Assembly (NCBI GenBank): GCA_965655095.1
Contig: OZ296653.1
Span: 76,508,001-76,572,000 of the forward strand
Reading direction: 5' to 3'
DNA from: Haplodiscus bocki
Taxonomy: Eukaryota
DNA: 64,000 nt
Shown: one piece after another, positions 3,001-43,400 of the stretch
Layout of the letters: every line of letters starts with the position of its first letter
How positions within the stretch are numbered: the first letter of the stretch is position 1
Notes under the pieces: model-generated
What the model was told of the DNA's origin: nothing
The model's database searches: none
What the model saw: only the letters and a program-made list of their open reading frames with translations
Position numbers and translations under genes: made by a program

Positions 3001-4679
3001 AGACAGCATATTTTGCGCCTTCCCATTTTGGTAAAAATGCTTTTTTGAAAGAAAGCGTTTCTTTTTTCAAAATACTGTTTCTTCATTATAATTTCTAATT
3101 TTTCCACCTTTAAAAATCTTCTGATTTTCGGCCAGAAAAAACCTCGCAAATAACATGGAAAGACATTTTTAAGTAATAATACCATTTGATACGCATTCTA
3201 CGAAAAATTGGCCAAATTTAGGAAATTTGAAAAAATTCAAGGTTTTTTCGAAAAAAAACCCACCTATTTTTCCGAAAAAGACCCAAATTTTGAACGTTTT
3301 GAGAAATCTCATTGTTTCAGTCGTATTCTACGGCAAATTTGCTACAATTTGGGAAAAACAAACTTTCACGTTCAGAAATGTGAACATTTTGGCCAACATC
3401 GAAATAAGCAAAATGATCAGCAAAAAAATACGGCAACAAATTTTCGTATGCGGTGAATTAAATTGGTACCATGAGGTTTCTGCTTATTTCACAACCCCCC
3501 CCCCCCCCGAAAAAAAGGAGATCCCTATTGAAAAATTACCGGGAATTACGTTAAAAAACTCCCCCGCAGGGGATCGTCTGGCCTCTACGACGAATGGCAC
3601 CCAAACGTAGGAATAACTGGCACGGCAATGACAAATCAACACAGCATAACTGACGAATACAGCGTCTACGTAACCTCGATATCAGTTGATTTACATCATA
3701 TCCACAAAACTAGAGGTCTGAAAGACGGACACGGCCACGTTTTAATATTGTCTTCAACTACAGCTTCGATATTGAAAACAGAGTTTTCACTATCGTCTAA
3801 CGCTGCGGAAAAGACTCGTATGTGGGTCTTTTGTGTTTTCAAAATTTGTCTTTTTTTCATGTACGCACTTTCAAGTCACACGGAATCACTCTTCATTTTC
3901 CTCGACAAGCCGAAGTGGTTTGAAACTTTTGGTTCTTCGGAAAATTTTGCTCCATCCAACGTTTTCACACAAAAAGTTGAATCGGAGCTCCAATAAATGT
4001 TGATAGGAGGGTATCACCAATTTTTTGGTATTTCTGCTGAAAAATTTGGGGACGACCCACCAGCAGGTATCACGAAAACTTCAGGAATAGGCTTCACTGA
4101 ATTTCAAATAGAACAAAAAAGTTTTCAAGTCTGCCTTTTCAATTTTCAAATATGCTTTCTTGAAGGTCTTTGGGATATTCTGATTAACAAATGAAACGTA
4201 TTGATTTTGCGGGTAGAGTTGACAACGTCGGCTACTAAACGTCGCATCCAAGAGAAGTAGGTCCTTCAAGAACACTAAGCATCTTTAGTCGGGCTTTTTA
4301 GGAATAACTAAAGCGCCGGGAAAGCATAAAAAATTTGTTATCAGTTGCCAACCTTTATTTTCAAAGCTTTATTTTCAAAGAACGATTGTGACACTTCAGA
4401 AAAATAAGGAAAACTTCTTTTGCGGAGCAGTCCTACTACACAATCTAGTACTGTAGAGTCATTTACAGTCATGAGACTAACAAGTCGGCCCATTAGTACA
4501 CAATTTGCGAATAAAAAGCAACAGACATTGCAGAAAACGTCCTATTTCGAGAGGAAAAATATAGCAGCACAAAATGATCGAAAGCAGACTAAAATTTGAT
4601 CCTTATTATAAAGTGGTTATCGAGATATTGTTTGAGAAGTTAGGAACAGTGATCTACAGTTAAAAGAATAGTAATAATA

Positions 4680-5775
4680 CCTCAGTCGTAAAAGTTTGAG
4701 GGTTCAAATTCCACAGGGCTCTCCAAGCTCACTTGGTGAGTCGTCAAATTTTTCCCCGTGTGATGCGATTCCACAGAAGTAAAGTTTTGTACAGGTACAC
4801 GGTTTGAATTGTTCCTCGTGATAGAGGAAACAGTTCTAGTATAGTTGCGATATAGTATCTTTCTTGAGTACTGTGTCTAATTTTGTTTTCAAGGGTAGTA
4901 GATTGTGTAGTATGACTGCTCTCCAAATGAAGGTTTCCTTGGTTGTATGCAGTATCGATTCAGGTATTTTTAGTTCATTTCTTGTCATTCGTTTGTTCTT
5001 TCCTGTGACAACTGGCTCAATCAGTTCATAGATTGCTCAATAATTGGATCCAAGTTAGAGATTGTGCATTTCCAAATAGAGTGATAAATGTAGTTTAAGC
5101 TATGACAATCATTTTTTTCGAGGTCAGGTGCTATGTCATCCATTTTGCGGCAGGAGTCAGTTTTTCTTTGCTGGGATAAAAAGATTGTGAGGCGTACGTT
5201 AGGATTGGGAGCACAAATCCTGTATATGCGTCGAATTTGATGCCATGTATCAATTTTGGTGCAATATTACTTTGATGGCAAATAAGACTCCAAGTGCTTT
5301 TTCGACTTTTGATGTTTTCGATCTATCCAAGGTCATTTGCTGAATATGGGCTGGGGACTGATCGACTGTTGCTTTTAACAGCTGCAGAACCTTTAATGTT
5401 TAAGAGATTGTCAGTTAAGGTCATTCTATTCGAATCACACCAGTTGTCGAGGCTTTGCGTACATTGATTCGCTGTAACATGACTGGTTAATATTGGTTTC
5501 AAGTCGTCAGAGAAAAGAAATCTTTCATTTTTGAATGCACAAGGTAAGCCGTTTATGTAAACTGGAAATAATAGATATCCCAGAATGGAACCTTGCGGAA
5601 CTCCGCTTGTTACTTCCGGCAAGTTCCATTTAGTTGTTTTATCTCAAAGTGTTTTCAATTTTTCAGATACGGAACTAGAAGACCGTAGTTGACCACAGAT
5701 TCCAAATTTGTCTGCAACTAAGCTGTAATAGGCGACCTTGTCGAAAGCCTTGCGAAAAATCATTTAGTTATACAC
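4680..5775 (-). mobile_element. Degenerate 3' fragment of a CR1/L2-group LINE (RT C-terminal half)
   Basis: Minus strand gives DFRKAFDKV near 5735-5760 and ORF 5323-5622 EVTSGVPQGSILGYLLFPVYINGLP...FLFSDDLK (RT domains 4-5); C-terminal ...LLWNRI near 4770; many stops and frameshifts. Confidence 0.8.
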
Positions 5776-9024: not shown

Positions 9025-9039
9025 TTGTTGTTGTTGTTG
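9025..9039 (-). repeat. (CAA)5 microsatellite 3' tail of the LINE
   Basis: ttgttgttgttgttg on the plus strand, ~45 nt beyond the ORF2 stop at 9083; short-repeat tails are typical of CR1/L2 elements. Confidence 0.85.
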
Positions 9040-9082
9040 AGGCTTTACAGTAAACTGAGGGGAGTTTGATCCCGAGTTGAGT

Positions 9083-11923
9083 TTAGAAAATTGTCCACTT
9101 TTCCCTGCAGTTCTGGCAGTCGCACGCAATCAGCCAGGTGCAGGAGTTGAGTTCGTCGTAGGTAGCTTCCACGACTCTCCAAAATAGCTTGATCAGGCGT
9201 CTTTTCAGTCCAACAGGTTCCTCGAAGTTTGCGTGTTGATTTACTCTGTTTGCCAGACGGGAAGTTCTGAACACGAATTCGTTCCTCGCTTTTTCAGTCC
9301 TAGTTTTGGGAAGCTTGAAGACTTCTTTGCTTGTTGAGGGCGCAGTTTGACTCTGTAAAAGAGTCACAGTTGTGGGCTTGCTGGTACAAAAATTGGTACG
9401 AAAGTTTGACAAGGTAAGCAGGTTCAAAATTTGGATGTGCATAGGCAACGGCAGAATGTTCAGAAAGCGAAGTTGTTGTCCATATTTTCCTGTTCCGCAT
9501 ATCCACTTAACGGCTCTTTTCTGGAGTTTTTCTGGAATGATCATTGACGCTTTTGACAGGTGAATGCACTGGATACCAAAGAGAAGAATGGGTAAGACTA
9601 GGGATTTATAGAGTCCGAGTTTGATTCGAGCACCTACAGATTGAGAGACATTTCTTCTTAGTAAGTAGAGAACACCGTTTGCTTTCGCTACTTTTTTGAT
9701 ATGTGCATGTTCCACGTGAGATCGCTGGTCAACGTAATGCCTAGATCTCTTACGTTGGCTTCGGTTTTCAGGGGTTCTCCGAAGAGTTTGAAAATTGTGT
9801 CCTTCCCTCGGAATGTCAGTTTAGCACATTTGTCTGTTGCTAGGGCCATTCGATTCTTTTTTACCCATTTTTCAAGTGATTGAAGATCGGTTTGCACTTG
9901 GAGTTCTGTTAGGTTTACGGAAAGAAATTTGAGGTCATCTGCAAAAAGGTATGAGTCGCTGAAAGCTAGGGCTTCTGGAAGGTCATTTATAAAAATACAG
10001 AACAGAAGTGGACCCAAGAGGGACCCTTGGGGGACACCGCTAGTTACGTCCTTTGGCCGAGAGCTGACGTTGTCAACGCGCACAATTTGCTTTCGGTCGG
10101 AAAGATAATCATGGAGAAGTTCGAGCAAACAACCATTTACGCCTAGACTTGCTACTTTGCACAACAGAAGGTAATGGGATACTTTGTCGAAAGCCTTACT
10201 GAAATCTGTGTAAAAAGCTACGACATCACTGTGTAGATCCTTATCGAGGGCTTTGTAGACAGCTTGGAGGAAAGCGAGCATGTTCGTTTTTGTCGATTTC
10301 TGGCGAACGAAACCATGTTGGTGTGAGCTCAGGGAGGTAACAAAGTGCTCGTAGAGTGGCGAATACATGCATTTTTCTAGAATTTTGCTGTCAATATCTA
10401 GAAGTGATATTGGTCTATCGTTTTCCACGAGGAATTGTTCGCCTTTCTTATGAATGGGCGAAACAACAGCGCGCTTCCAGCATTTGGGAATCTTTCGCAA
10501 TCTTTTTGTTTTTGAGCAAGAGATGAAGAGCATGAATCATACCTTCGCCAGAATTAACAAAGAAGGAAGGCGGATAGCCATTTGGGCCTCGCGTTTTGCT
10601 TGCGTCAAGATCAGAGATAATGCTCCGTAATTTGGCTTTTGAAATGCTGAAATTTGTTAGGGAAACATTGCTCACTGGGATGTTGTTGAAGTTGTAGTCC
10701 ACCTTTGGAGCGAAGACAGAATGGAAGTATTCATTGAACATTTCCGCTTTTCTGAAGGCACTTTGAGTACTTTCATTTCTGAATTGCATTGATAACGGAA
10801 GACTGGCTGTCTTTTTGAGACACTTTAAATGCTTGAAAATTCTACCAGTGTCGCGCGTGTTGAACAGTTTCTCCTGGTAATGAACTCTGTCTTCTTCACA
10901 TGACTTGGAAACTAGGTTCTCTAGTTCGACTATTTTGTTCCGCTTGTAGCTGGTAGGTTTAGCTGCTAGTAACCTTTTCTGGGTTTGCATTTTCTTCAAC
11001 AGATGAGAAGATTCGGAGGTTATCCAGGGGGGCAAATTCTGGCGATGTCTCGTCCGGGTTGGGACGAACATGTCAATGGCTCGATCAAAATGTTGGTATA
11101 GTTCAAGGCACGTGTTGTCGATGTTGGAAAAACATGTGGGGGAAAATGGGTTCCGGCAGAGGTGGTCACGCAGGCTGCTGAAGTCGGCTGACCCGAAGCT
11201 TCTGAAGTTTTCTATGAAGATCTTTTCAGAACAAGTCAGTCTCTCAATTGTCAGTCTGATGGCAAGGTAATCTGAGCAGTTGTAAATCTCATTGAAGTTC
11301 TCGTCTACCGCAGCTGTTACGGTGCAGTTGGAGAAAAAGGCAACATCAAGAGTTCGCGAGCCACAGGTGGGAAAATTGATCGATTGATCATACATTAGGT
11401 CATCGAGTAAGTCAGTCACAGCTTGTTCGAATGAGTCAGTGCTGGTCCGAGTTTCCCAGTTAGTGTCGGGGAAATTGATGTCACCACAGATTATGACTGG
11501 TTTCCCTTTTGGGGTTCCCCTGATCAGATTTACGAAATCGTCTATGGAGTATCTGTATGGGCTACCATGTGGGGGCGAGTAGAAGACCCTTATCACAATG
11601 TCTTCTCCTGAAATCCTTATTGTGCATTGAAGGCAACATTTGGGGAGATTGGCAAAAGTGACTTCAGAATAGTAAGTGTTCCTGATGGCGATGAGCACAC
11701 CACCATGAGGAGAGGGTTTGCCGGATGTAGAGGGTCTGTCTGCCCGATAGATGGTGAAGTCACTCATGAGGAGCTCCGCCGAGTTACTGTCTGAAGTGAG
11801 CCAGCTTTCAGTGATACAGATTATGTTATACTTTTGAACAAGAATGGCGTTTCTGAGTTTGAGTCTACGTTCGTAGTTTAGGAGACTTCGAGCGTTTAAG
11901 AGTAGTACACTTACATTGTCTAG
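9083..11923 (-). pseudogene. LINE ORF2: APE endonuclease + reverse transcriptase, two frameshifts (~10510, ~9700)
   Basis: APE motifs LLNARSL, IICITESWL, YRADR...HGGVLIAI, ICGDINFP, TLDVAF, CSDY; RT motifs RPISLL, QHGF, DFSKAFDKV, SGVPQGSLLGPLLF, LFADDLK; C-terminal CDCQNC; split over track ORFs 10448-11767, 9688-10533, 9083-9715, with the open frame extending upstream to 11923. Confidence 0.93.
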
Positions 11924-12835
11924 TCAAAATGAACTTTGCTCCTTGCGGAGGAGCTCGGTAGCATCCATCGCTACCTTTTTACCATCATTGAATAATTCAA
12001 AGTTGCGAATTTTTAGTTTCTCACGAGGAACGCCTTCATCTAGAAGTTCTCTTCTCTCTTTCAGCACTTGATTCTCTTTGATGACGTCAGCCTTTGATAA
12101 TGCAGGAAGGAAGTAGATGGACTCCTCCGTTAAGACTTCGCGGTTTTCCACGCTTTTCGCCATGATTAGCTTCTTATCGTACTCATTCCGGACCGTAACA
12201 AGAAGGGTCCTTGGTTTGATTCTTGTTTTGTCAAATTTTCCAAGTCGCTTCATTGAAGTGATTTCGGTATTGACATTGAAGGATTGTAGGATATTTTTGA
12301 CTTTTTCGGTGGTTGGGACAAGATTCTCATCGACAGTTTTCTCGGGATCTTCAGCGATCCCTTGTATTCTGAAGCTTGCTGAGATGTTGAGATCTTCAGA
12401 TTTCACTTTTGTTTTGGAGTTTGAGGAAGTTACCACGGAGGCAGCTTTCTCGAGCGTTTTGGCTGTCACTTAAGCATAGTTTTGTTGAATTTTGTCACAT
12501 GACTCCGAAATTAGATTTGCAAGTTTCGAGTCGACAAGTTCGGAGAACTTGTTTTCCAGATTGGAGAGCTTTTCATCGATTTTCAAGTCTGAGATTACGG
12601 ACTCAACCTTCGTTTGTGCTCTGCATCTAATGAACACGTCTCGTTCTCCATTGTCAAGACAAGTGTTGCACATGAGCATGCAATTGTTACCGAGTTCCTT
12701 GATTCCGTTGATGGCAACGTTTGAGAGAGCTGTGCATTCGGTGGTAAGATGCATGTGCTGGTTGCAGCCCACGCAACAATAGGTTTTTTCCGAGGCAGCA
12801 ATGTTGTTTTTACACGTCTTGCATTTTCTCACCAT
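11924..12835 (-). pseudogene. LINE ORF1: PHD finger + coiled coil + RRM/Tnp22-like domain, one in-frame TAA at 12470-12472
   Basis: ATG at 12835; CKTC...CVGCNQHMHLTTEC...CNTC PHD pattern; heptad region; FRIQGIAE...KRLGK...KPRTLLV...IYFLPALS; the two track ORFs are in one frame (NYA*VT). Confidence 0.85.
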
Positions 12836-12931: not shown

Positions 12932-13507
12932 TCACTTGAGTCCTTTGTCTCTTCTGGTTTTGGAGAGTCGCTGTCTCTTGCTTCTGATCAGACGGATATC
13001 ACCACCGTAACTTCTCAGGAACGTAAGGGATTTTATTTCAAGTCTGTAGTCTAGATGGAATTCCTGGTATTTCGCGAGTAGCTTCTGGTCTTTCTGCTTC
13101 CGCTTCGAAAGGAGATCTTTCAGAAGATTGAGGACTGGGATACCGGTTACTGCCAGGTAGCTGTAGATATTTTTGGTACCCGACCGCTGACAGTAGACGA
13201 TGCCGCACAGACCTTTAAGGTTTTTGAGTTCTGATACCAGTTCTTCAGGGGACAGGGGGGGGGACGTGGGTCGACTGGGTGCTTCCCGATGGAGTTTATT
13301 TATGGCGTCGTGCCACAAAATAAAACCTTCGTCTGCTGAGACTTCGTTTTGGATTACCTGGACGAGTTTGTTCTGGGCTCTGCTCTGTCGATTTAAATGC
13401 AGTCCAGGGATTGCAATAAGGTTCGAATCGAATAGATGTCGTCGTTTACACCGTTTCCAGGCTTCGATCGCGTGATGAAGACTGCTTGCTCCGAGAATAT
13501 AAACCAT
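12932..13507 (-). CDS. LINE-associated ORF0, putative SGNH/GDSL esterase-like protein (191 aa) with basic C-terminal tail
   Basis: VYILGASS (block I-like, GDS variant), IPG (block II), ILWHDAIN (block III-like), EFHL (block V-like); same strand and similar base composition as the adjoining LINE; first ATG 13507. Confidence 0.55.
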   Translation of the reverse strand: MVYILGASSLHHAIEAWKRCKRRHLFDSNLIAIPGLHLNRQSRAQNKLVQVIQNEVSADEGFILWHDAINKLHREAPSRPTSPPLSPEELVSELKNLKGLCGIVYCQRSGTKNIYSYLAVTGIPVLNLLKDLLSKRKQKDQKLLAKYQEFHLDYRLEIKSLTFLRSYGGDIRLIRSKRQRLSKTRRDKGLK

Positions 13508-14907: not shown

Positions 14908-15077
14908 TGTGGTGATTTCATATTTTATTAAACTCTGCTCTTATAGCCTTTTCACCACTTTATTATGTTACATTTATTACATACTTCATAACCTGCTTTG
15001 TTTCAGTTGCTTGAAATGATGTACAATACAAACTCGATCTATTGTCTGTTTTGCTCAGTTTAAGCTAGGTCACGACA
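14908..15077 (+). repeat. 5' LTR (170 bp)
   Basis: tgtggtg...cacgaca; same as 19014-19183 except tattacatac vs tattagatac. Confidence 0.97.
15003..15008 (+). promoter_or_regulatory. Initiator-like TCAGTT; predicted transcription start at A15005
   Basis: Matches the metazoan Inr consensus TCA(+1)GTT; AT-rich tttatta about 30 nt upstream; complementarity to the primer site stops exactly at this A. Confidence 0.6.
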
Positions 15078-15079
15078 AT

Positions 15080-15091
15080 TTTCAAGCAACT
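15080..15091 (+). promoter_or_regulatory. Non-tRNA primer-binding site complementary to LTR 15005-15016 (self-priming type)
   Basis: tttcaagcaact is the exact reverse complement of agttgcttgaaa; 2 nt downstream of the LTR end; no TGG start as expected for a tRNA PBS. Confidence 0.8.
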
Positions 15092-15251
15092 ATACATTTT
15101 GCTGTTGCTTGTCCAAGGAATCTTCCTGCACTGTTGACAAAGCGTTTTCCTCATTCAAAGGATAATGTATTGCCTGACGGACTTTATAAGGTATAGTGCT
15201 CGAACGCGGTTATAAAAAAGATACATATTTGGGTGGCACAACTGAATCACT

Positions 15252-18200
15252 ATGGCAGACCCTGCCCCTTCCGCCAAATTCAATTTACATGCTCCAGTAT
15301 TCGATGGCGGCGATGCTGAAAGCTTTAATCTATGGTTGTCTCAGTTTCAGAGATATATACGCGTTACAAAGCCAGCCGAAGACGACAAACTCGATCTGTT
15401 TCTTCTCTGTGCTGGTAATAAGGCTGCTCAGTATTACAATGAAGTAACTTGGCCAGAACTTACCCAAGCCGAAAAAGATGCTGGTGTAACAGAGTTTTCA
15501 CGTGCTGTTACCTTCATCACCAACAAATTTGTGTCTGGCAAAAATATTCTGTCTGAAAGAATAAAATTGTATTCGGCCAAACAACGACCGAACCAATCGC
15601 TAACGGATTTTTTATCTGAACTGCGTCAGATTGCTAGTTATTGCAATTTCCCTACTGCCTTTGCTGGCGAAGCTTTGCGTGATGCATTTTGCCAAGGACT
15701 TGCGTCTGATGGCTTGAAAAGGGCTGTATGCCGTGCTTTTGCTACTGCGACAGCAAACAACGTCGCATTTACACTAACAAATGCAGTCAGTGCCGCAGAA
15801 GTTGAAGAATCTGCTTTACAAAGTTCTAGCCAGGCTGAGACATCTATATCCGTTGCAGCACAAAAGGCAAACTCACGAAAGAATCGTGGAAACACTGGAA
15901 ATGAATCCAGCAGGACTAACAATCCCTTACACAAAAATGGTAAAACCGTCCGTTGTCACTGGTGTGGATCTGCTGAATTACACGGTAAAAAAGAATGTCC
16001 CGCCAAAGACAAAAAATGCACTATATGTGGCCGTACTGGACACTTTGCTAAGGTTTGTCTATCAAAGTCCAAGGTATCTGCAAATAAAGTCGACTCTGAC
16101 AGTGATTTTGATTTTGTGGCGGGCGCTTATGGCTCTAAATATAGCGTACGCCGATTTACAGACGTCAGAATTAACGGACGCAACCAAAGCTTCCTTATTG
16201 ACTCTGGTAGTGACATCACGGTAATCACTGAGAAGGTCGCACATGACTTAAATTTACACTACACGCCGATACAAGCCACTGCTAAATGTATTTCTTCCAA
16301 TAAAATATCCCTGAAGGGTATTACAGACGTTACACTTTCTTTTTCGGGCGTGAAACTAAAGGAAACTGTTCATATTGCCGAACAACTGTGCGATCCGGCT
16401 ATAATGGGCACAAACGTTTTTTCAAAATTCAGATGAGTTACGATCAATTACGGCGGTAGCAATCCTAAAATCACAATTGCGTGTCAGAAAGTTGCCACTG
16501 ACAATTTACATTTTGGTTTTATTGACGTAGAACCTTTTGCTATTATTGTCTTGGAGCCAAACGCTACGCCAATTCGATGCCCATCAAGAATCAGATCCAG
16601 AGAGGATAATGAATTTATTCGCAAAGAAGTTACCAAATTGCTTAAACAAGGAATTATCGAACCCTCCAGCTCGCCCTGGCGTTCTCAAGTTGTTGTTGCT
16701 AAAAATAAGGATAAGAAACGAATGTGTATCGATTTTGCTTCCACAATCAACAGATATACAGTTCCAGATGCGTATCCTATTCCAGTTATTGAAAATTTGC
16801 TCCAGAAAGTCAGTAAATGGAAATTTTACTCCTATATTGACCTCCAGTCTGCGTATCATCAGCTCCGTCTGAAAGATGACGAGAAACACCTCACTGCCTT
16901 CGAAGCTAACGGTCGTTTATACCAGTTTCGCAGATTACCATTTGGTGTGACCAATGGTGTTGCTGCATTTCAAAGAGCTATTGATATGTTGATTGAAGAC
17001 TTGGAGGGCGTTGCTGCCAATATCGACGACGTCGTGGTCGGCGGCGAAACTCAAAAGGAGCATGATGAAGCTCTAGATAAATTTATGAGAGTCGCCGAGA
17101 AACGTGGATTGATAATCAACCGAAAAAAAAGCAAATTCAATACAACTGAATTGCATTTTTTAGGCCACGTCTTTAAATCAGGTAAAATGTACCCTGAAAA
17201 GGAACGTATGGCACCATTGCTTGATTATCCTATTCCGAAGACCAAAAAGGAATTGGATCGATTCGTTGGCCTAGCTGTATACTACTCAAAATGGATACCC
17301 TCCTTTGCTTCGGTAACAGAACCCTTATTTGCAGCTAAATTAAAGCCTACCTTTCCTCTAAATGCTAAAGCTTGTGAATCAATTAGAAATATCAAACAAT
17401 TGGTGTCTGAATCAGCTCTATGGATTCCCGACCGCCATAAACCGTTTCGGTTAGAAATTGATGCTTCTGGCACTGCTATTGGTGGTGTTTTGTCGCAAGA
17501 CGACCGCCCTGTCGCTTTTGTTTCTCACAAATTGAGTGAACAAGAAATAAACTGGCCAGCAGTTGAGAAAGAAGCTTTTGCGATTGTTTGGTGCATTGAC
17601 AGGCTCAAACACTTTTTAGTTGGTTCAAATTTTACGATTATAACGGACCAGAAAGGTGTTGCATACCTCCTTGATGGCAGACCGAAATCAGCTATCAAAA
17701 ATAATAAGTTATCACGATGGCGACTTTCTCTTGCAGAATACAAATTCGACGTGCAATATCGTCCTGGAAGTCAAAATTCCGTTGCCGACGCGATGAGCAG
17801 AATTGCCAACTTGTCTACCGACGATTTAGATAAACCATATATCTGTACAGAAATTGACACTGTTCTGGAACAAGCACACGACAAAATCGGACACCCCGGA
17901 ATTGCACGCACGTGTGAATATTTACAGCGTCACTGTTACATTCCAAAGCTCAAAGACAAAGTAACGAAATATGTTTCAAATTGTCGGATTTGTCTCGCGT
18001 TGAAACCAAAATTTTATTCCCCTCCGAAAGTGCCTTTGATAACATCAAAGACTCCATGGGAAAGATTATCGATAGATTTTGTAGGCCCCAAGCCTACAAC
18101 AAGATCTGGTTATACTTGTTTCCTAACTGTTGTTGACGAATTCAGCAGATTCCCTTTTGCTATTCCTATGAAAGATGCCAAAACAAGCAACGTTATCACT

Positions 18201-19037
18201 GCGTTAACCAATATTTTTACGTTATTTGGCCCTCCTTTATCTATTCACAGTGATCGAGGTGCTCAGTTTGAAAGCCACGAGTCTAACCTGTTTCTTGGTC
18301 GCTGGAACGTGAGAAAGTCACGCACCACTCCGTACAACCCCGCGGGTAACGGACAATGCGAGCGAACCAATGGAACAATTTGGAGAACTGTAAAACTCCG
18401 ACTGAAACAGCTGAACAAGAGCTTAGATCAATGGGATGAAGAATTGAATATGGCTCTAATGAATATCCGTACGTTAGCATGTCGTACAATTAATAATGAA
18501 AGCCCTCATAATCGCTTGTTTGCCTTTACGAGACGAACAGCTCTCAAAAACGGCGATTTACAAGATCATTATCTTGCTGACGTACCTGAATGGATGAGCC
18601 CTGCCTCGCCTGTTTACGTTAAGAACTTTGTCCGCAATCGTAAAGACGACCCACTGGTCCAAGAAGCTCGGATAGTGAAAGTAATTAGCCCACAACATGC
18701 CCTGGTTTCATACCCTCAAACAAATCGGGTTGATACGGTTGCTACAAAATATATCGCCAAATCGGTGGACCAGCCAGTAACGAGTCAGGAACCTCAGGCG
18801 GATGTCCCTTTAAACGATGAATACGACGAGGGTACATCGGAATTACCTCTCGTTGATCCCGGCCATATATCTGATACCAATACGGTCGAACATGACCAGC
18901 ATGCTGCTTCACCGCCGTCCTTTGTACAAGAAACAACTGACTCCAAACAATCGGCGACCGCTGGTTGCGCACTACGAAGAAGCACCCGCAGAAGAACTCA
19001 AAAACGGGGAGAATGTGGTGATTTCATATTTTATTAA
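15252..19037 (+). pseudogene. Gypsy gag-pol polyprotein in a single frame, one in-frame TGA at 16434-16436
   Basis: Gag with two Zn knuckles (CHWCGSAELHGKKEC, CTICGRTGHFAKVC); protease FLIDSGS; RT SPWRSQVV, LPFGV, NIDD; RNase H IDASG...EKEA...TDQ...VADAMSR; integrase HHCC plus SIDF...SDRG...GQCER; 16437-16550 is open in the same frame; stop lies inside the 3' LTR. Confidence 0.95.
19000..19013 (+). promoter_or_regulatory. Polypurine tract
   Basis: aaaaacggggagaa directly before the 3' LTR. Confidence 0.85.
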
Positions 19038-19183
19038 ACTCTGCTCTTATAGCCTTTTCACCACTTTATTATGTTACATTTATTAGATACTTCATAACCT
19101 GCTTTGTTTCAGTTGCTTGAAATGATGTACAATACAAACTCGATCTATTGTCTGTTTTGCTCAGTTTAAGCTAGGTCACGACA
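19014..19183 (+). repeat. 3' LTR (170 bp)
   Basis: Direct repeat of 14908-15077 followed by TSD CAGCC. Confidence 0.97.
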
Positions 19184-20059: not shown

Positions 20060-23000
20060 AAGAGTGCAAAAAGGAAAATGGAAACCTCCCTGGTTTCTTA
20101 AACAAGTAAAAAAGCTATAAGTAAAAACAGAAAAGCGCTTTAGAGAAGTACCAGCTGCCTCGAATAAGACAAGACTCCAAAATTTTAGTCAAGAAACAAG
20201 TTTAACTGTTAAGGCAGCCAAATGTAATCAATTTTCAAATGTCTCTTCGAATAGTATGGTTGAATCAAAAACGTTCTATATGATGCCTAATGAAATGACC
20301 GGTAAAAGAAACGTGAAAACAAACTTCAATATTTTTAGTAAAAAATGAGACACCATAAACTCCACACAGCTAATGCCGTTTTCTTGGAAAAAAAACTTAT
20401 TCGACTTTGCAATTACTGTTGAAAGTCCAACCACAGAGGGCAATACAGAAAGTCTTTAAATTATTGATAATTTTGATGACGATTTGTTTGCAATCCCCAC
20501 TATTATGGTTGAGGTGTTTAATGCGGTAGGTATAATGAAATACCATAAAGCTGTTGGAAATGATGGAGTCTCAGCTGAAGTGCTCGAAAAATTGATTCCT
20601 GTGATTGTTTTCACTTTAATGAAACTTCTAATTCCATCTTTGCCACGCGGTTAGTTGCCGAAGTGTCGAAAGGATGCCAAAGTATATCCATCAGAAAAAT
20701 CGGGTGACATTGAGTTTGAATAACTATAGGTCGACTTCGATATTACCAGCTAATAATAAAGTGTTCAAGAAAATCATGTATAAAAATTTCCATTTCTTTT
20801 TGATTACAAGAATATGTTTTATCCAAAGCAGTTTGTTTTTTTTAGTAAACGAAGTACTATCGAAGCTGTTGCTGGAAATACAGAACAATTTAGCTAAGGG
20901 AGTACTGATATATTTACTTGTTTTTCGTTTAGGTTCCATAAAGCAAATGATTCCATCAATCATGAATTTTTGATATCTAAACTGGAGAAGCATAGTGTCG
21001 GAAGAAAATGTTTCAAATAGGTTGAATCCGTTTCAAAAGAAAGTCATCAGTGTGTTCAGGTAAATGTTGTACTTCCGGATTTCTTATACTTGCTAGTAGG
21101 AGCACAGCAGTGGTAAATTCTCTGGCTTCAAATGTTTTTAATTTACGTCAAGGATCTACCAGGTGCTTGTGATTTTCCTAACTCAAATTCTTTTGTTGAC
21201 GACAGGAATTTTATTTATCGTTTATCGTAAAGTATCTGATGTTCAATCCAAAAAAAGTCAATTTAACATATTCTCTATTCCGACAAATCCTGCTCCACTA
21301 GTCGCAATTCACTGCGCTACACAGGTGCGAAGCTGATTATTTGCCTATTACATGATTGGGTACAGTTATTCTTCCCCAAGAAAAAAGCGTAAAACACAGA
21401 AACACATACAACATGCACGAGTAGATGATCCAATTTAAAATACAATTCATCGTCGAGCATGCTCATCATGTGCTGTTAGTTTAATCGGTCCCCATTTCAT
21501 GCTTTGCAGTGTCCTTTCTGATCGTGCTATTTATATTATATATCTACATGTATTTTTTATTATTTTTATATATGTATAATTCTATATCTGTGTGTTTTTA
21601 AGGAAGCTCCTCATCGGAAAAATTGAATTGCTATTCTCATCCTTCTTACTTTTAGTTCAACTGGACACCCATGGCAAAAAATCGTCCCGAAACAAACCCA
21701 ATTTTGCACGGCTCATTAGTAACTGAGGGTTTGTTTCGGCAGACATGAAAGTGCAACGATGCAAAAAGAAAAAACGGAAACCACCCAGGTTTAACAACAA
21801 AGTTTAATATCGTATCAGTAAAAAAAGATTTGTATTGAATCACTTTACACAAACACCAACAGCTTCAAATAAAACCAGACACCTGAAAATTAGTCAAAAA
21901 GCAAATCTTTTTGTTGGGGGAACCAAATGTGATCAATTTTCAAAAAATTTTCCAGATTGAATGATATAACCAAAAATGTTCTATTAGACGCCTGTTGAAA
22001 TGACAGGTAAAAGAAGCGTGAAAACGAACTTGAATATGAATAATGAAAAAAGGACACCATAATTTCCCCTATAGTTCTTGCGGATATGTTGAACAAAATT
22101 TGTCGAGTTCGCAACTATTGTTGAAGTTCCAACCACACAGGACCTTATAGAATGTTTTGAAAAAATTGACATTATTGATTATAATTTGATTGCCTTCCAA
22201 AATATTATGATTGAGGTTTTTTTTGCGGTACGTACTGCGAAAAACCATAAAGCTGTTGGAAATGATGGTGTCTCAGTTGAGGTGCTTAAAGTATCGCTTC
22301 CTGTGATTGGTTTTATTCTAAAGGAACTTCTAAGTCTATCTTTGCCACGCGGTTAGTTGCCGAAGTGTCGAAAGTATGCAAAAGTTTATCCATCAAAAAA
22401 ATCGGGTGACATATTGAATATCAATGACTATAGGTCGACTTCGATATTACCAGCTATTAATAAAGTGTTCAAGAGAATCATATATGAAAGTTTATAATCA
22501 TTTTTTGATTACAAGAATATGTTTTTTGCAATGCACTTTGGTTTTCTTAAAAAACGAAGTACTATCGACGCTGTTGCTGAAATTACAGAACAAATTAGGC
22601 AAGGGAGTATTGACACTTTAAATGTGTTTTGTTTGAGTTGCATAAAGCAACTGATTGCATCAATCATGCAATTTTGTTATCTACATGTTAGAACTATAGT
22701 GTCAGAGGAAAATGTGTAACTTAGTTTGAATCTCTTTCAAAAGAACGACGTCACTGTGTTCAGGTAAATGATGTACTTCCGGATTTCTTGTACTTGCTTG
22801 TAGGAGTACAGCAGGGGTAAATTCTTTGGCTTCAACTGTTTTTAATTTACAAAAACTGATCTAGCAGGTGCTTGTGAGTTCCCTCACCCAATATCGTGTG
22901 CTGACGACACAGTCTTATTTTTAGTATATCTTAAAAATCAAGATGATTTGCAATTGTTGATCAAATTTTAGGAAATTTTTCCAAAATGGTTATCCATCAT

Positions 23001-26000
23001 TAAACTTGTATCAAATATAGGTGAATTTCAAGCAAAAACAGTTTTAAATATTTACGGCGAAAAGATTAGTCTTTCAGATTCCAGTTTTGATTGGAAATAC
23101 TTCTGTAAGTTATCTTGTCAATTAATTCGACATTTTCTTAAACTTTGGTTTTCACATTGGTGAGGCACTTACAAATACTTTCAAAACCTTGTTCGGTTAT
23201 ATCTTGATTGAGAGACTATGTTAAAAAGCCTCTGCTTCTCCAGTAATATAATACCTATTTTCAAGCGGTTTTTGGATATGGTCTTTTATTTAATAGCTCT
23301 ACTTCAAAAAAACAGGTTGAAACCTTTGCTACTTTACAAAAAAAAACAAACTAAGAAACTTTTGCACTAAAGAACGATTTAATTCATCTGCAAATCTTTT
23401 CGATGAGCGAGATGTGTTAGATATGATTGACTATTCTACTGTTGAGCTTCCTATTTGTTTCTTAGGTCAATTCATAGTGTTATGCTAACTGAATGTCTTA
23501 ACTCGTTGTTTGAGCGCAAAGTATCTGACATTCAATCCAGAAAAGTTCAATTCAACATATTCTCTATTCCGAACAAATCCTGCTATACTAATCGCAATTC
23601 TCTGCGTTACTCAGGTATGAATTTGATGTTTTGCGTATTGGAAACTTGTTTAAGTACAGTTGTTTTTCGAGAAGAAAGAAGCGTAAAAGGTTAAAGCACA
23701 TGCAACATGTACGAGTAAAGGATCAATTTTTAAATACAATTTTCCGTCGAGACAGCAGATATTATGCTGTTAGTTTAATCGGGTCCCATTTCATACAATG
23801 GGGTGTCCCCTATGACGGTGCACTTTATAATATATATCTACATGTTTTGCTGCTTTTTTTTTCTAAATATGTATAATTCCATAACTGTGTTCTTATAAAA
23901 ATGCACCTCATCGGAGAAATTGAAGTACTATTCTTATCCTTCTTACTCCTAGTTCAACTTGAAACTCATTGCAAAAAATAGGCCCAAAACGAACCTACTT
24001 TTGCCCGGCTAACTAGTAACTGAGCGTTTGTTTCGGCAGACATGAGAGAGCAACAATGCAAAAAGAAAAAAAACGGAAACCACCCAGGTTTAAGAACAAA
24101 GTCTAATTTTCTATCAGTAAGAAAAGAAAAGTATTGAATAACTTTACACAAAAACCAACAGCTTCGAACAAAATCAGACTCCTGAAATTGAGTCAAAAAG
24201 CGAATCCTATTGTTAGGGGAACCAAATGTGATCAATTTTCAAATAACTTTCCAAAATATATTATAAAACCAAAAATGTTCTATGAGACGACTATTGAAAT
24301 GACATGTAAAAGAAGCGTGAAAACAAACTTGAATATGAATAATGAAAACGGACACCATAACTTTCCCTACAATTCTTGCGGATATGTTGAACAGAACTTG
24401 TCGAATTTGCAACTGTTGTTGAAGTTCCAATCACCACAGGACCTTATAGAATGTTTTGAAAAAATTGACAAAACTGATGACAATTTGATTGCCTTCCAAA
24501 AATAATATGATTGAGGTTTTATTGCAGTAGGTACTTTGAAAAACCGTAAAGCTGTTGGAAATGATGGTGTCTGAGTTGAGGTGCTTAAAATATCGCTTCC
24601 TCTGATTGTTTTTATTTTAATGGGACTTCTAAGTCCATCTTTAACACGCGGTTAGTTGCGGAAGTGTCGAAAGGATGCAAAAGTATATCCATCATAAAAA
24701 TCGGGTGACATATTGAAAATCAAGAACTATAGGTCGACTTCGATATTACCAGCTAATAATAAAGTAATCAAGAGAATCATTTATGAAAATTTCCATTCCA
24801 TTTTTGATAACAAGAATATGTTTTTTGCAATGCACTTTGGTTTTCTTAAAAAACGAAGTACTATCGACGATGTTGCTGGAATTACAGAACAAATTAGGCA
24901 AGGAAGTATTGACACTTTAAATGTGTTTTGTTTGAGTTGCATAAAGCAACTGATTGCATCAATCATGAAATTTTGTTATCTAAATGGTAGAACTATAGTG
25001 TCACAGGAAAATCTGTAACTTAGTTTGAATCTCTTTCAAAAGAACGACGTCACTGTGTTCAGGTAAATGATGTACTTCCGGATTTCTTGTAGTTGCTTGT
25101 AGGAGTACAGCAGGGGTAAATTCTTTGGCTTCAACTGTTTTTAATTTACAAAAAATGATCTAGCAGGTGCTTGTGAGTTTCCTAACTCAATATCGTGTGC
25201 TGACGACACAGTTTTTTTTTATATATCTTAAAAATCAAGATGATTTGCAATTGTTGAACAAATTTTAGGAATTTTTTCCAAAATGGTTATCCATCAATAA
25301 ACTTGTATCAAATATAGATGAATTTCAAGCAAAAATAGTTTTAAATATTTACGGCGAAAAGATTAGTCTTTCAGATTCCAGTTTTGATTGGAAAAAATTC
25401 TGTAAGTTATATTGTCATTTAATTCGACAATTTCTTTAACTTTGGTTTTCACATTGGTGAGGCACTTACAAAAATTTTCAAAACCTCGTTCGGTTATATC
25501 TTGATTGAGGGACCATGTTAAAAAACCTCTGCTTCCCCAGTACTATAATACCTATTTTAGAGCGGTTATTGGATATGGTCCCTTAATAAATAGCTCTACT
25601 TCAAAACACAGGTTGAAACCTTTGTTACTTTACAAATAAAACAAATTAATAAACTTTTGCACTAAAGAACGTTTTTATCCATCTGCAAATCTTTTTGATG
25701 AGCGAGATGTGTTAGATATGATTGACTATTCTACTGTTGAGCTTCCTATTTGTTTCTTAGGTCAATTCGTAGTGCTCTGCTAACTGAATGTTTTAACTCG
25801 TTGTTTGAGCGCAAAGTATCTGACATTCAATCCAGAAAAGTTCAATTCAACATATTCTCTATTCCGAACAAATCCTGCTATACTAATCGCAAATTTTTGC
25901 GTTACACAGGTATGAATTTGATGTTTTGCTGATTGGAAACATGTTTAAGTACAGTTGTTTTTCGACTAGAAACAAGCGTAAAATATTAAAGCACATGCAA

Positions 26001-29000
26001 CATGTACGAGTAAAGGATCATTTTTTAAATACATTTTTTTGTCGAGAAAGCTGATCATATTCTGTTAGTTTAATCGAGTCCCCATTTCATGTATTGGGGT
26101 GTCCCCTATGATGGTGCTATTTATAATATATATCTACATGTTTTTGTTGTTATTTTTATATATATATGTAAAATTCTATAACTGTGTTCTTATAAAAATG
26201 CACCTCATCGGAGAAATTAAATTGCTATTCTTATCCTTTCTACTCTTAGTTCAACTGGACACTCATGGCAAAAAATTGGTCCGAAATCAACCTACTTTTG
26301 CCCGGCTCAATAGTAACTGAGGGTTTGTTTCGGCAGAAATGAAAGAGCAACAATGCGAAAAGGAAAAACGGAAACCACCCAGGTTTAATAACAAAGTTTA
26401 ATATGCTATCAACAAGCAGCGAAAATTATTGAATCCTTTTAAACAAATACCAACAGCTTCGAATAAAATCACACTCCTGAAAGTTAGTCAAAAATCAAAT
26501 TTTATTGTTAAGGGAACCAAATGTGATCAGTTTTCAAATAAATTTCCAAAATGTATGATAAACCGAAAATGTTCTATGAGACGTTTAATGAGGTGACAGG
26601 TAAAGGAAGCGTGAAAAGAAACCTGAATATGAATATTGAAAAAAGACACCGTAATTTCCCCTAGAGTTCTTGCGGATATGTTGATCGAAAACTTTGTCGA
26701 CTTTGCAACTACTGTTGAAGGTCGAATCACACAGGACCTTTTTGAATGTTTGAAAACATTGAAAATAACGATGACAGTTTGTTTGCCATCCCAATTATTT
26801 TGAATGAGGTTTTTATTGCGGTAGGTACTTCGAAAACCCATGAAGCTGTTCGAAACGATGGTGTCTGAGCTGAATTGCCTAAAATAATGTTTCCTGTGAT
26901 TGTTTTTATTTTAAAGGATCTTCTTAGTTTATCTTTGTCACGCGGTTTTTTGCTGAAGTGTCGAAAGGGTGCCAATGTATGTCCATCATAAGAATCGGGT
27001 GACATGTTGACTATCAATAACAATAGGTCGACTCTATTACTACCAGCTATTAATAGAGTGTTCAAGAAAGTCATGTTTGAAATTTTATGTTCATTTCATG
27101 ATTAGATTATGTTTTATCCAATGCAGTTTGGTTTTCTTTGTAAACGAAGTACTATCGACGCTCTTGCTGGAATTACAGAACGAATTAGGCAAAGGAGTAC
27201 TGATACATTTACATGTTTTTTTGTTTGGGTTGCGTAAAGTTATTGATTCCAAGAATCATTAAAATCTGTTAGCTAAACTAGGGAACTATAGTGCCGGACA
27301 AAAATGTTCAAATTGGTTTGACATCTTTTCAAAAGATCAGGCAAAAGGATGTACCTCGGGATTTCTTGTAATTGCTGGTAGGAATATCGCAGGGCTCAAT
27401 TCTTTGGCTTCAACTGTTTTTAATTTACATCAATGATCTACCAGGTGCATGTGAATTTCCCAAATCAACTTCGTGTGCTGACGACACATTTTTATTTATC
27501 AATTATCGTAAAAGTCAAGATGAGTTGCATTTGTTGAACAAATTTTGGAAAAGTTTCCAAAATGGTTATCCGTCGAAAAAACTTGTTTTAAATATTGATG
27601 AAACTCAAGCAATAACCGTTTTGAAAAAATACGGCAAAAAGAAGAATTTTTCAGCTTCCAGTTTTGATTGAAGTAACCTCTGTAAGTTATCTTGGCATTT
27701 GTTTGACAATTTCTTCAACTTTTGTTTTCATATTGCTGAGGCTTTTATAGAAAACTTCAAAACCTTGTTCAGTTATTTCTTGATTGAGAGACTGTGTTAA
27801 AAAGCCTGTGCTTTTCCAGTACTATAAAACCTATTTTAAAGCAGTTATTGGATATGGTTTCTTAATTTATAGGTCAATTTCAGAAAACAGATTGAAACCT
27901 TCGTTATTTTACAGAAAAGGATACTATGGCAAATTTGGCCGAAAGATCGTTATTATTCGTCTGCAGAACTTTTTGATGAACGAAATGTGTTAGAAATGAT
28001 TAACTTCTTATTGTTGAGCTTCATATTTTTTCCTAAGTCGAATCGTAGTGTTCTACTTACTGAATATCTCAGGTCGTTGTTTGAGCGCAAAGTATCTGAT
28101 GTTCGATCCAGAAAAACCCAACTTAACATATTCTCAATTCCGAACGAATCCTGCTTTACTAGTCGTGATTCTCTGCGTTACACAGGTGCCAAGCTGATGA
28201 TTGGCCTATTAGAAACATATTTCGGCACAGTTGTTCTCTGATAAGAAAGAAGCGTAAAACACTAAAACGCATACAACATGCACGAGTAAAGGATCAAATT
28301 TAAAATACAAGTCTTCATCGAGAATGCTCATCATATGTTTTTAGTTTAATCGGGTCCCCAATTCAAACTTTGGAGTGTCCCTTCTGATGGTGCTATTTTT
28401 TCATATATCTACTTGTAATTACTGTTTTTTGTATATATGTATATTTCAACAGCTGTGCATTTTTACATATGCCCTTCATCGGAAAAAAAACCCTTTTTTT
28501 CGTTCTTATTCTTAGTTGAACTGGAAACTCGTGGCAAAAGAGGAACTCTACACCAACCAACTTTTGCCCGGCTCATAAATAACTAAGGATTTGTTTCGGC
28601 AGACTTGAGAGAGCAACAATGCAAAAAGATAAAACGGAAACCACCCAGGTTTAGTAAAAAGATTATTATGATATCAGTAAGAAAAGAAAAGTTTTGAATC
28701 TTTTTACGCAAATACCAACAGCTTCGAATAGAACCAGAGTCCTGAAAATTAGCCAAAAAGCAAGCTTTATTGTTAAGGGAACCAAATGTGATCAATTTTC
28801 AAATTACTTTCCAAAATGTATGATAAAACCAAAAAAATTCTATGAGAAGCCTATTGAAATGACAGGTAAAAGAAGCGTGAAAACAAACTTGATTACGAAT
28901 AATGAAAAAAGACACCATAACTGCCATTACAGTTCCTGCGGATATGTTGAACAAAACTTGTCGAATTTGCAACTGTTGTTGAAGTTCCAACCACATCGGA

Positions 29001-32000
29001 CCTTATATAATGTTTTGAAAAACTTGACAATAATGATGACAATTTATTTGCTTTCCCAATTAATATGATTGAGGTTTATATTGCAGTAGGTTTTTCAAAA
29101 AACGATGAAGCTGTTGGAAACGATGGTGTCTCAGCTGAAGTGCTTAAAATATCGCTTCATGTGGTTGATTTTATTTTAAAATATCTTCTAAGTCTATCTT
29201 TGCCACGCGGTTAGTTGCCGAAGTGTAGAAACGGTGCCAAAGTATGTCCATCAAAAAAATCGTTTGACATAGAGACTATCAATAACAATAGGTTGACTTT
29301 AATAATACCAGCTATTAAGAAAGTGTTTAAGAAAGTTATGCTTGAAATTTCATGTTCATTTCATGATTACAAGATAATGTTTTATCCAATGCAGTTTGGT
29401 TTCCTTAGTAAACGAAGTACTATCGACGCTCTTGCTGGAATCACAGAACGAATTAGGCAAAGGAGTACTGATACATTTACATGTTTTTTGTTTGGGTTGC
29501 GTAAAGCTATTGATTCCATGACTCATGAAAATCTGTTAGCTAAACTACTGAAAGATAGTGTTGGAGAAAAATGTTTAAATTGGTCTGAATTCTTTTCAAA
29601 AAAACAACGTCAGTGTGATCAGGTAAAGGATTTACTTCCGGAATTTTTGTATTTGCTGGCAGGAGTACAGCAGGGTTAAATTCTTTGGCGTCAACGATTT
29701 TGTAATTTACATCAACGATCTAGCAGATGCTTGTGAGTTTCCTAATTGAATATCGTGTGCTGACAACACAATGTGATTTATCAATTATCGTAAAAGTCAA
29801 AATGAGTTGCATTTAGTGAACAAATTTTGAAAATGTTTCCAAAATGGTTATCCCCTAAAAAATTGTTCTAAATATTGATGAAACTCAAGCAATAACCGTT
29901 ATATTAAATAATGGCAGAAAGATTAATTTTTCAGCTTCCAATTTTGACTGAAGTAACTTCTGTAAATTGTCTTGGCATTTTATTTGACAATTGCTTCAAC
30001 TTTAGTTTTCATATCGCTGAGGCACTTATAAAAACCTTCAAAAGCTTGTTCAGTTATATCTTGATTGAGAGACTGTTAAAAAGCTTCCGCTTCTCCACTA
30101 CTATAATACTTTTTTAAAAGCAGTTATTGAATGTTGTTTCTTAATTCATAGCTCAACTTCAGAAAACAGATTCAATTCTTCGTTTTTTTTTACAGAAAAA
30201 GCTACTATGACAAATTTGCCCGAAAGATCGTTATTATTCATCTGCAGAACCTTTTGCTGAAGGTAATGTGTAAAAGATGAATAACTTCGGTATTGTTGAG
30301 CTTCAAATTTTTTGCTAAGTCGATTCGTAGTGTTCTACTTACTGAAAACCTTAACTCGTTGTTTGAGCTCAAAGTATCTGATGTTCAATCCAGAAAAACT
30401 CAATTAACATATTCTCATTTCCGAACGAATCCTGCTTTACTAGTCGTGATTCTCTGCGTTACACAGGTGCGAAGCTGATGATTTGCCTCTTGCAAATATT
30501 TTTGGGTACAGATGTTCTTCGATAAGAAAGAAGCGTAAAACACTAAAACACATACAACATGCACGAGTAAAGGATCAAATATAAAATACAATTTTTCATC
30601 GAGAAGGCTCATCATATGCTGTTAGTTTAATCGGGTCCCCATTTCTTGCTTTGGAATGTGCCTTCTGATGGTGCTAATTGTATTATATATAAACATGTGT
30701 TTTTTGTTACTTTTATATAAGTATAATTCTGTAGCTGTGTAATTTTATAGAAGCTCCTCATCGGAAAAAAAAATCCTTTTTTTCCTTCCTTTTTTTAGAT
30801 GAACTGGAAACTCGTGGCAAAAGAAGAGCCCTACACCGACCCATTTTTGCCCGGCTCACTAGTAACTGAGGGTTTGTTTCGGCACCTATGAGGGAGCAAC
30901 AATGCAAAAAGAAAAGTCGAAAACCACCCAGGTTTAATAACAAAGTTTAAAATGCTATCAGTTGGAAAAGAAAAGTATTGAATCTTTTTACACAAATACC
31001 AACAGTTGCGAATAAAACGAGACTCCGGAAAAAGAGTCAAAAAGCAAATTTTATTGTAAAGGGAACCAAATGTGATCAATTTTCAAATAACTTTCCAAAA
31101 AGTATGATAAAACCAAGAATATTCTATGAGACGCCTAATGAAATGACAGGTAAAAGGAGCGTGAAAAACTTGATCAATGAAAAAAGGACACCATAAATTC
31201 CCTCACAGTTCATGCGGATTTGTTGAACAAAACTTGTCGTGTTTGCAATTGTTGTTAACAATCCAACCACACCGGAACCTATAGAATGTCTTGAAAAAGT
31301 TGACAATAATGATGACAATTTGTTTGCTTTCCAAATTAATATGATTGAGGTTTTTGTTGCAGTAGGTACTTTGAAAAACTATAAAGCTGTTGGAAATGAT
31401 GGTGTCTCAGTTGAAGTGCTTAAAATATCGCTTCCTGTGATTGGTTTTGTTCTAAAGGAATTTCTAAGTCTATCTTTGCCACGCGGTTAGTTGCCAAAGT
31501 GTCGAAAGAATGCAAAAGTATATCCATCAAAAAATTGGGTGGCATATTGAACATCAATAACTATAGGTCGACTTCGATAATACCAGCTATTAATAAAGTG
31601 TTCAAGAGAATCATATATGAAAGTTTATAATCATTTTTTGATTACAAGAATATGCTTTATGCAATGCAGTTTGGTTTTCTTGGTAAACGAAGTACTATCG
31701 ACGCTGTTGCTGGAATTACGGAACAAATTAGGCAAGGAAGTATTGACACATTTACATGTATTTTGTTTGAGTTGCATAAAGCAATTGATTCCATCAATCA
31801 TGAAAATTTGTTAGTTAAACTAGAAAACGAAAGTGTCGCAGGAAAATGTTTAAATAGGTTTGGATCGTTTTCAAAAGAACGACGTCAGTGTGTTCAGGTT
31901 AATGATGTACTACCGGAATTCTTGTACTTGCTGGTAGGGGTACCGCAAAGGTCAATTCTTTGGCTTCAACTGTTTCTCATTTACATCAATGATCTACCAG

Positions 32001-42732: not shown

Positions 42733-43400
42733 AGTTTCAGGTTGCTAAGCCTTTTGATTTTCTTCAACCTTGAAAAGCTTCCGAGCGTCTACCATTATCT
42801 CTGGCTTTCAAATTTTTCACTGACGTTGGGCCATTTTATGGTTTTTTGACGCTCTCCGTTATTCGCTAATGAGTGGTAAGAGAAAGCGTCAATCAGGTGC
42901 GGTAGTTGGAAAAACTTACATGGTTCAAGATAGATTATAATCACTGGAGCTCGAATTAGATTTTCCACTCGAAACAAAGGAGGAGTTATTCTTTGGTGAG
43001 CTTTTAAAATGAGACACAAATTTGGCAATGTATTTAGACAAGCTATAAATCGGCAATGTATTAAGATAGTGTTTCCACGTCAAAGTATTACACTACGTAA
43101 AATATTACGATAGGGTTTCCGAGTCAGGGTAATACGCTGGGTAATGTAATGAGACAGTTGGTTCGAGTCAACATGTTATGATACGAGTCCATGTTGGTTA
43201 ACGTTTTAAGATAGTCAGACGGATCAATATGTAGGGATAGGGGAACTTCGGCACTGTGTGACTTTTTCAAGTATTCCTCCTGAACTTCTCGATGAGGCCC
43301 TTGATATGTTTTACAAGCGGACTGTTTTTGACGCCTGTGGTTAGCTGAATAGGATAAGTACTGCGGCTGTGGTCAAATCTCACGCCTGCGATTACTAGTT
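42733..43400 (+). repeat. Left terminal inverted repeat of the Polinton
   Basis: Reverse complement aligns collinearly with ~58385-59014 (shared blocks aaaaagtc.cacagtgcc, aaacgtta.ccaac.tggac.cgtatc, tgactcgga..ccctatc, agcgtcaaaaaaccat, tttcaa.gttgaaga). Confidence 0.8.

Follow-up and report, generated by a model that had tools for sequence, protein, structure and literature searches.

A candidate UGA-CUA(G) stop-codon readthrough signal at the ORF1-ORF2 junction of a LINE lineage

A 64,000-nt stretch of the Haplodiscus bocki genome (assembly GCA_965655095.1, contig OZ296653.1, positions 76,508,001 to 76,572,000; hereafter the window, in whose coordinates all positions are given) carries a decayed copy of an APE-type non-LTR (long terminal repeat) retrotransposon, or long interspersed nuclear element (LINE), that reads on the minus strand. 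Its open reading frame 1 (ORF1) is separated from ORF2, which encodes the endonuclease and the reverse transcriptase (RT), by a single UGA that is followed at once by CUA and G. We propose, with a probability of roughly 0.78, that this lineage expresses ORF2 through programmed readthrough of the UGA-CUA(G) stop. A sequence-only reading of the window had suggested this route, and comparative evidence now supports it, with the stop and the next codon kept among relatives at ~39% ORF1 identity.

The ORF1-ORF2 junction

ORF1 (11927-12835, minus strand) comprises 303 codons from the ATG at 12835. As first read from the letters, it ends in TTT TGA (11926-11924) and continues directly and in frame with CTA GAC AAT. 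The proposed recoding site, TGA CTA G, occupies positions 11920-11926 of the window DNA, and its retention in relatives is followed through protein records. The frame after the TGA is open for 491 codons. Its first 52 codons (11768-11923, minus strand) lack an AUG: in frame, an ATG comes only at codon 53 (11767), in agreement with the earlier reading, and in-frame near-cognate codons, one base from AUG, are absent before codon 27. Frameshift entry into ORF2 is disfavoured, as the two shifted frames run into stops of their own 1 and ~18 codons past the UGA.

The window contains one TGACTAG where 5.4 would be expected. The heptamer is thus not above chance, and it is therefore its placement and its retention in relatives that carry the signal. 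CTA followed by G would be expected after a random stop in ~0.5% of cases, judging from the element's own codon use. Two further motifs that had been pointed out just 3' of the stop, an out-of-frame ATG TAA (11916-11911) and an overlapping GTAAGT (11914-11909), are both present and together span 11909-11916 on the minus strand. The residues encoded by these bases differ among families, so the bases themselves are not kept, and no role for them is supported.

The AUG-less start of ORF2

The 52 AUG-less codons hold the first two APE motifs, as the sequence-only reading had claimed: N10 and E39 align with motifs I and II of the human L1 endonuclease. E39 is invariant and N10 nearly invariant in an alignment of 20 sequences. 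A structure model that covers the 241 residues past the stop reaches a mean predicted local distance difference test score (pLDDT) of 88.4. Within residues 1-60, which score 79-94 by blocks of ten, it places strands at 4-10 and 34-38 and a helix at 17-30. The best Foldseek match of this model is the human L1 endonuclease (1vyb, TM score 0.74, E 5e-14); a direct phmmer search of the endonuclease against PDB gave no matches, and a profile search did align the L1 endonuclease.

According to the alignment and the model, a start at the AUG at 11767 would cost the protein motifs I and II, two core strands and the helix, which bears out the expectation that it would yield a crippled endonuclease. On the same grounds, the AUG-less codons are needed to build a predicted complete endonuclease fold. 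Annotation from the first AUG thus cuts off the first two endonuclease motifs. An example is the Symsagittifera roscoffensis RefSeq protein XP_063717659.1, a member of a sister family that starts at the same late Met.

The stop codon in the element's own family

The window copy is damaged by a TAA at 12472-12470 and by frame changes near 10500 and 9700. Because it is decayed, the stop was examined in relatives. Protein collections were searched with the junction read through as X, and with the C-terminal half of ORF1 (best 150 of 453 matches); the relatives listed come from 30 clusters, with at most 15 proteins per cluster. The sister proteins P0059, P0074, P0297 and P0312 were excluded from the own-family tally.

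Forty proteins of the element's own family reach the junction, and 38 of them fit a stop there. Nineteen end at the stop and seven cross it as W-L-D. Others have shifted tails, seven in the -1 frame (HFD-stop) and five in the +1 frame (LTRQ), and the remaining 2 of 40 end two codons before the stop. The earlier reading had named a sense codon at this position in most copies as grounds for refutation; among the 40 proteins, none has an alternative sense residue. The HFD-stop and LTRQ tails match the window's own other frames and therefore jointly spell TGA CTA G. The W of the database proteins most plausibly reflects a TGA that a gene caller translated under a table in which UGA encodes Trp, since siblings end at the same place.

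The TAA within ORF1 (12470-12472) serves as an internal control. Of 39 family proteins, 38 have Lys at the corresponding position and one has Thr, so this lesion is private to the window copy, a simple nonsense mutation as first supposed. A run of C in the ORF1 tail (~11955-11945, minus strand) is an indel hot spot, and 12 of the 40 family proteins shift frame in its region.

Retention of the junction among relatives

In the sister family, at ~52% ORF1 identity, protein P0354, from the same cluster as XP_063717659.1, crosses the stop position as W-L-G. More broadly, the end of ORF1 provided an anchor for 297 of 444 proteins, which fall into 103 clusters at ~70% identity. Thirty-three proteins from 23 of the 103 clusters cross the stop position in frame into the endonuclease, with a median ORF1 identity of 39% that is partly lowered by decay. 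The residue at the stop position in these crossers is W in 21, R in 8, C in 2, E in 1 and Q in 1. A single base change leads from TGA, but from neither TAA nor TAG, to a codon for R or C, and this holds independently of the code used. Leu follows in 31 of the 33 crossers (21 of 23 clusters), and nine clusters include siblings whose last residue lies directly before the position at which the crosser shows W, R, C or E.

The geometry of the junction is likewise similar. The ORF1 tail measures 15-30 codons among crossers (P0039, at 59, is an outlier), and the stop lies 10 codons before the Asn of motif I in most, 11 in P0054 and P0354, 12 in P0191 and 7 in P0039. Three proteins that end before this Asn (P0091, which reads R-L-G, P0295 and P0313) were placed by eye or by a sibling, and P0330, a false placement, is excluded from the counts. 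Among 14 usable distant LINE ORF2 proteins that served as a control, W is absent at -10 throughout and a single protein shows Leu at -9; five of the 19 control proteins had no usable motif placement and were left out. Of the crossers placed in a tree, 21 of 23 fall in one clade (support 100/99, with the bootstrap not fully settled); P0191 and P0039 lie outside it, yet also read W-L.

Frameshifted tails gave access to the nucleotides behind these residues. When 39 such tails were decoded with the endonuclease motif as an anchor, nine gave a motif placement at p <= 0.05; TGA is allowed by all nine and CTA by eight. P0182 and P0098 force NGA-YTA, and P0286 gives TNA-CNA; P0023 and P0140 were left out because their decodes are not significant. 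CTA accounts for 25 and TTA for 12 of the element's 141 Leu codons. The codon after the Leu encodes D, G or A, all of which start with G, in 13 of 23 clusters against a background of 26%. The base after CUA is G in the window family and T, C or A in some other clusters. As decoded from the protein records, the position of the UGA, the UGA itself and the CUA are shown to be retained across diverged families, with G preferred next.

Genome contigs were also searched for the junction DNA of relatives. None of 183 pattern matches to the ORF1 profile was confirmed. An RT query recovered 23 LINE-like loci (L001-L023) at 32-46% identity, which sit within bacterial and archaeal genome bins and are most likely host contamination. 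The nine loci that have more than 2 kb upstream were examined, and none matched the ORF1 profile. Four loci in which the endonuclease start is present (L004, L005, L006 and L010) have their last stop at least 27 codons upstream with no CUA after it, and serve as a distant control only.

Alternative explanations

The main rival is termination followed by reinitiation, as in L1, in which ribosomes restart after the UGA without an AUG (or at a nearby AUG where one is present) and make a separate ORF2 protein (ORF2p). We consider this unlikely, though it is the strongest of the alternatives. Reinitiation and stop-start coupling are known routes in L1 and SART1 (PMC2881922, PMC5972666, PMC5009743), and the fixed distance from stop to endonuclease fits reinitiation too. 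However, reinitiation needs neither an in-frame ORF2, nor UGA, nor CUA, and all three are kept; a leaky stop context would moreover oppose termination. In the window, no AUG or near-cognate codon lies ahead of N10. The sequence-only reading had held that an in-frame AUG near the junction would speak against readthrough. Such a codon is absent in the window family and most others, but clusters 79, 65 and 84 have a Met four codons past the stop, upstream of motif I, and P0240, P0245 and P0248 are called from there. This Met falls at a site that takes hydrophobic residues (V, L, I, F or M), and in cluster 79 TGA-YTA is retained even so.

Splicing could also bypass the stop if CTAG were a 3' splice acceptor (or GTAAGT a donor) and a spliced RNA, having dropped the stop, made ORF2. 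TTTTGACTAG does look like a pyrimidine run followed by YAG, two donor-like copies of AAGGTAAA lie upstream of ORF1, and the G-start codon that follows the Leu in 13 of 23 clusters is compatible with an AG acceptor. Yet the AG is not kept: T or C follows CUA in cluster 79 and P0098, and other relatives read L-S, L-N, L-F or L-I. A splice acceptor would fix AG, whereas it is the UGA that is kept, and splicing from a donor 3' of the stop would leave that stop in place. The cis-preference of LINEs would, in addition, copy the spliced RNA and lose ORF1. Splicing is thus very improbable.

A single fused ancestral ORF with a sense codon such as CGA, in which TGA arose by a nonsense change or by recurrent CpG decay, is less credible still. 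The window copy does have three other lesions, and eight crossers carry R. For the element's own family, a fused ancestor is nevertheless refuted, as R or Q occurs in none of the 40 proteins. CpG decay predicts CAA (Gln) about as often as TGA, and Q is seen in 1 of 33 crossers. W is also the residue at the stop position of two long crossers, P0199 (871 aa) and P0354 (1055 aa), and there is no close full-length fused relative among eight matches of 742-2115 aa, which is a weak test.

Redefinition of UGA, by host-wide reassignment or by selenocysteine insertion, is about equally improbable: the neighbouring Ty3/gypsy element has a second in-frame TGA (16434-16436), but that codon precedes G, not CUA, Trp is encoded by nine TGG codons in the frames of the LINE and by 15 in that of the gypsy element, against one TGA each, and the window has no match to any Rfam family at gathering score, selenocysteine insertion sequences included, the LINE 3' untranslated region (UTR) being shorter than 50 nt.

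Weighing the proposal and its mechanism

Several points weigh against programmed readthrough, beside the Met of the three clusters above. The evidence outside the window consists of protein records, from which the nucleotides of relatives were decoded; their gene-calling code is unstated, so that W=TGA is itself a deduction, and some family records may repeat one locus and are not independent. The tree placement of most crossers in one clade indicates one origin kept over long divergence, not many. Eighty of the 103 clusters have no in-frame crosser, and a crosser with W can show up only if its ORF2 is in frame and its stop a TGA, an ascertainment effect; out-of-frame or non-TGA junctions can be detected only through mutated copies. 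Exceptions at the junction are E (P0259), Q (P0137), W-Q (P0095) and R-K (P0167). P0014 decodes to CNT after the stop, and two weaker decodes (p 0.07 and 0.08) disallow TGA. No stable RNA structure was found in a 201-nt fold around the stop (z -0.07), by a method that does not model pseudoknots. From the literature, the in-frame UGA between the ORFs of Tca2 is described as not read through via its local context, a warning that such a UGA can fail in reporters (PMC2194720), Odon et al. argue that for its functions ORF1 must yield a product of its own, apart from ORF2 (PMC3708506), and no ORF1-ORF2 fusion was seen in a study of rat L1 (PMC2241872).

In P0095, the W is followed by Q-S. This could represent UGA-CAR, a context like the CARYYA motif named in PMC4132726, in a single protein.

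Under the proposed readthrough, ribosomes would translate ORF1 and mostly terminate at the UGA, giving abundant ORF1 protein (ORF1p). A minority would insert an amino acid at the UGA, aided by the 3' CUA(G), and produce an ORF1p-endonuclease-RT fusion. The rate may be a few per cent, a figure borrowed from mammalian reporters, and would set the ORF1p:ORF2p ratio. No protease domain was found, and we speculate that the fusion is not cleaved and may hold ORF2p on the ORF1p particle that forms on its own RNA. It seems fairly likely that a whole invertebrate LINE radiation, perhaps with more distant LINEs (P0191, P0039), has no free ORF2p and makes its endonuclease-RT only as a readthrough fusion.

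Architecture of the element and its surroundings

ORF1 of the window is 96% identical to P0007 and P0008 (303 and 302 aa). It starts with a Cys-rich PHD-like finger, followed by what is probably a coiled coil and an RNA-binding region. Window-family ORF1 has no Pfam PHD match; its relative P0122 matches PF00628 just under the cut-off (E 6e-5), and PHD families occur on 12-42% of members among the Atlas neighbours of ORF1, which we treat as a lead only. A search of PDB with the ORF1 profile gave nothing meaningful.

ORF2 (9083-11923, minus strand) encodes the APE endonuclease, the RT and a Cys-rich C-terminus, and is broken in the window copy by the two frame changes. Pfam assigns PF03372, PF14529 and PF00078 (the last at E 9e-30), and the best profile match of the RT is L1 ORF2p (E 5e-71). 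The short 3' UTR (9025-9082, minus strand) closes in five CAA repeats (9039-9025), which form the 3' end of the element. In a self-comparison of the window, no repeat flanks the LINE as LTRs would, and there is no second copy.

Upstream lies ORF0 (12932-13507, minus strand; 191 codons), whose stop TGA (12934-12932) is ~95 nt ahead of ORF1. It is probably part of the element, as it resembles the N-terminus of P0029 (40% identity over 112 aa, pairwise E 4e-20), a protein of another family in which the ORF0-like N-terminus is joined to the C-terminal half of an ORF1. Given this likeness, LINEs of this lineage may have three ORFs. ORF0 has no Pfam match at E 0.01, the Atlas gave no lead, and its single-sequence structure model is unusable (pLDDT 37). 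Its GASS start may resemble an SGNH esterase motif. Between ORF0 and ORF1 (12930-12850, minus strand), GGCTAAGGTAAA occurs twice, with a pyrimidine run and CAG separating the copies, which may be splice-site-like or a promoter element.

The window also contains a Ty3/gypsy-type LTR element (14908-19183, plus strand) with 170-bp LTRs that are 99.4% alike and CAGCC on both flanks. Its order is gag-protease, then RT-RNase H-integrase, and the in-frame TGA noted above, which follows the protease, is probably a lesion of that copy. A tandem array of ~2.3-kb units that are 71-85% alike spans 20065-39549, with an N gap at 34643-34842; by eye, its open frames resemble decayed LINE RT pieces. Two pairs of inverted similar segments were found, 42761-43267 with 58487-58993 (66%) and 4390-4451 with 4895-4956 (81%).

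Significance and comparison with known systems

The UGA-CUA(G) readthrough context at the LINE ORF1-ORF2 junction appears to be a known signal in a new setting. In the literature searched we found no account of a non-LTR element in which the stop between ORF1 and ORF2 is read through, although Repbase, subscription journals and supplements lay outside that search and prior notice is possible. The production of ORF2p from bicistronic LINE RNA has been called unclear (PMC3708506, PMC5009743). If the wider reading, a radiation without free ORF2p, is true, readthrough joins reinitiation, stop-start coupling, frameshifting and 2A among the routes to LINE ORF2, and retrotransposition is possible with an ORF1p-ORF2p fusion that stays uncut. 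The proposed readthrough predicts a fusion protein unseen in L1 studies, with consequences for particle assembly and cis-preference. Since the signal is seven bases long and kept across diverged families, this route to ORF2p could be put directly to the test with a short reporter. Young elements of this lineage may also be mis-scored as broken.

Like L1 and SART1, the element would use a bicistronic RNA and make ORF2 at a low level after ORF1. In L1 there is a spacer of 60-63 nt, and ORF2 has an AUG (with two in-frame stops in rat L1); SART1 has an overlapping stop and start. The window LINE differs from L1 in having no spacer, one stop and no AUG ahead of motifs I and II, and from the UAAUG coupling of SART1 in that its one nearby ATG (11916), which has TAA as the next codon, lies out of frame. 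Translational recoding where a LINE ORF2 begins has precedents in the 2A-bearing CR1, L2 and Crack elements and in TRE5-A and TRE3-A of Dictyostelium (PMC3708506, PMC13405545, PMC5911963). However, 2A splits one ORF into two products, and TRE5-A and TRE3-A are described as -1 frameshifts (PMC5911963). The window ORF translations, read by eye, contain no 2A motif (DxExNPGP or NPGP). Five distant ORF2 proteins from our searches (P0036, P0038, P0041, P0042 and P0043) carry a 2A-like NPGP or NPGL upstream of the endonuclease, as in other LINEs.

With its APE-RT ORF2 and a putative PHD-like ORF1 N-terminus, the element is like the CR1/L2 elements of types IIC and III of Metcalfe and Casane (PMC4120745), from which it differs by the extra ORF0. 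The main text of that paper does not use the wording "stop codon".

The arrangement also recalls murine leukaemia virus (MuLV), Candida Tca2 and Tj1 of S. japonicus, in which structural and enzyme frames are aligned with one stop between them that sets their ratio (PMC2194720, PMC5911963). The in-frame stops described for MuLV, Tca2, SIRE1 and Tj1 are all in LTR-type elements. MuLV (UAG and pseudoknot), Tca2 (UGA) and Tj1 encode a protease that cuts the fusion, whereas none was found in the LINE. In contrast to the UAG and 3' pseudoknot of MuLV, the LINE has UGA and no stable hairpin in a fold that did not model pseudoknots.

The closest likeness in signal is to the mammalian genes AQP4, OPRK1, OPRL1, MAPK10 and MDH1 and to alphavirus UGA-CUA, where UGA-CUA is likewise kept and G is preferred next. 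Loughran et al. found UGA-CUA fixed with G preferred in four mammalian genes, and describe UGA-CUA as universal with G in >90% of mammalian cases (PMC4132726). Readthrough there was 1.5% from UGA-CUA alone and 3.5-31% in the CUAG genes (PMC4132726). In a mutational scan every active variant had CU at +1/+2, which was essential (bioRxiv 10.64898/2026.07.14.738498). The mammalian UGA-CUAG cases need no 3' structure (PMC4132726), and no stable one was found in the 201-nt fold of the LINE junction. The two differ in what the leaky stop would deliver: mammalian readthrough adds short tails, whereas the extension in the LINE is an endonuclease-RT of ~950 codons in a retrotransposon.

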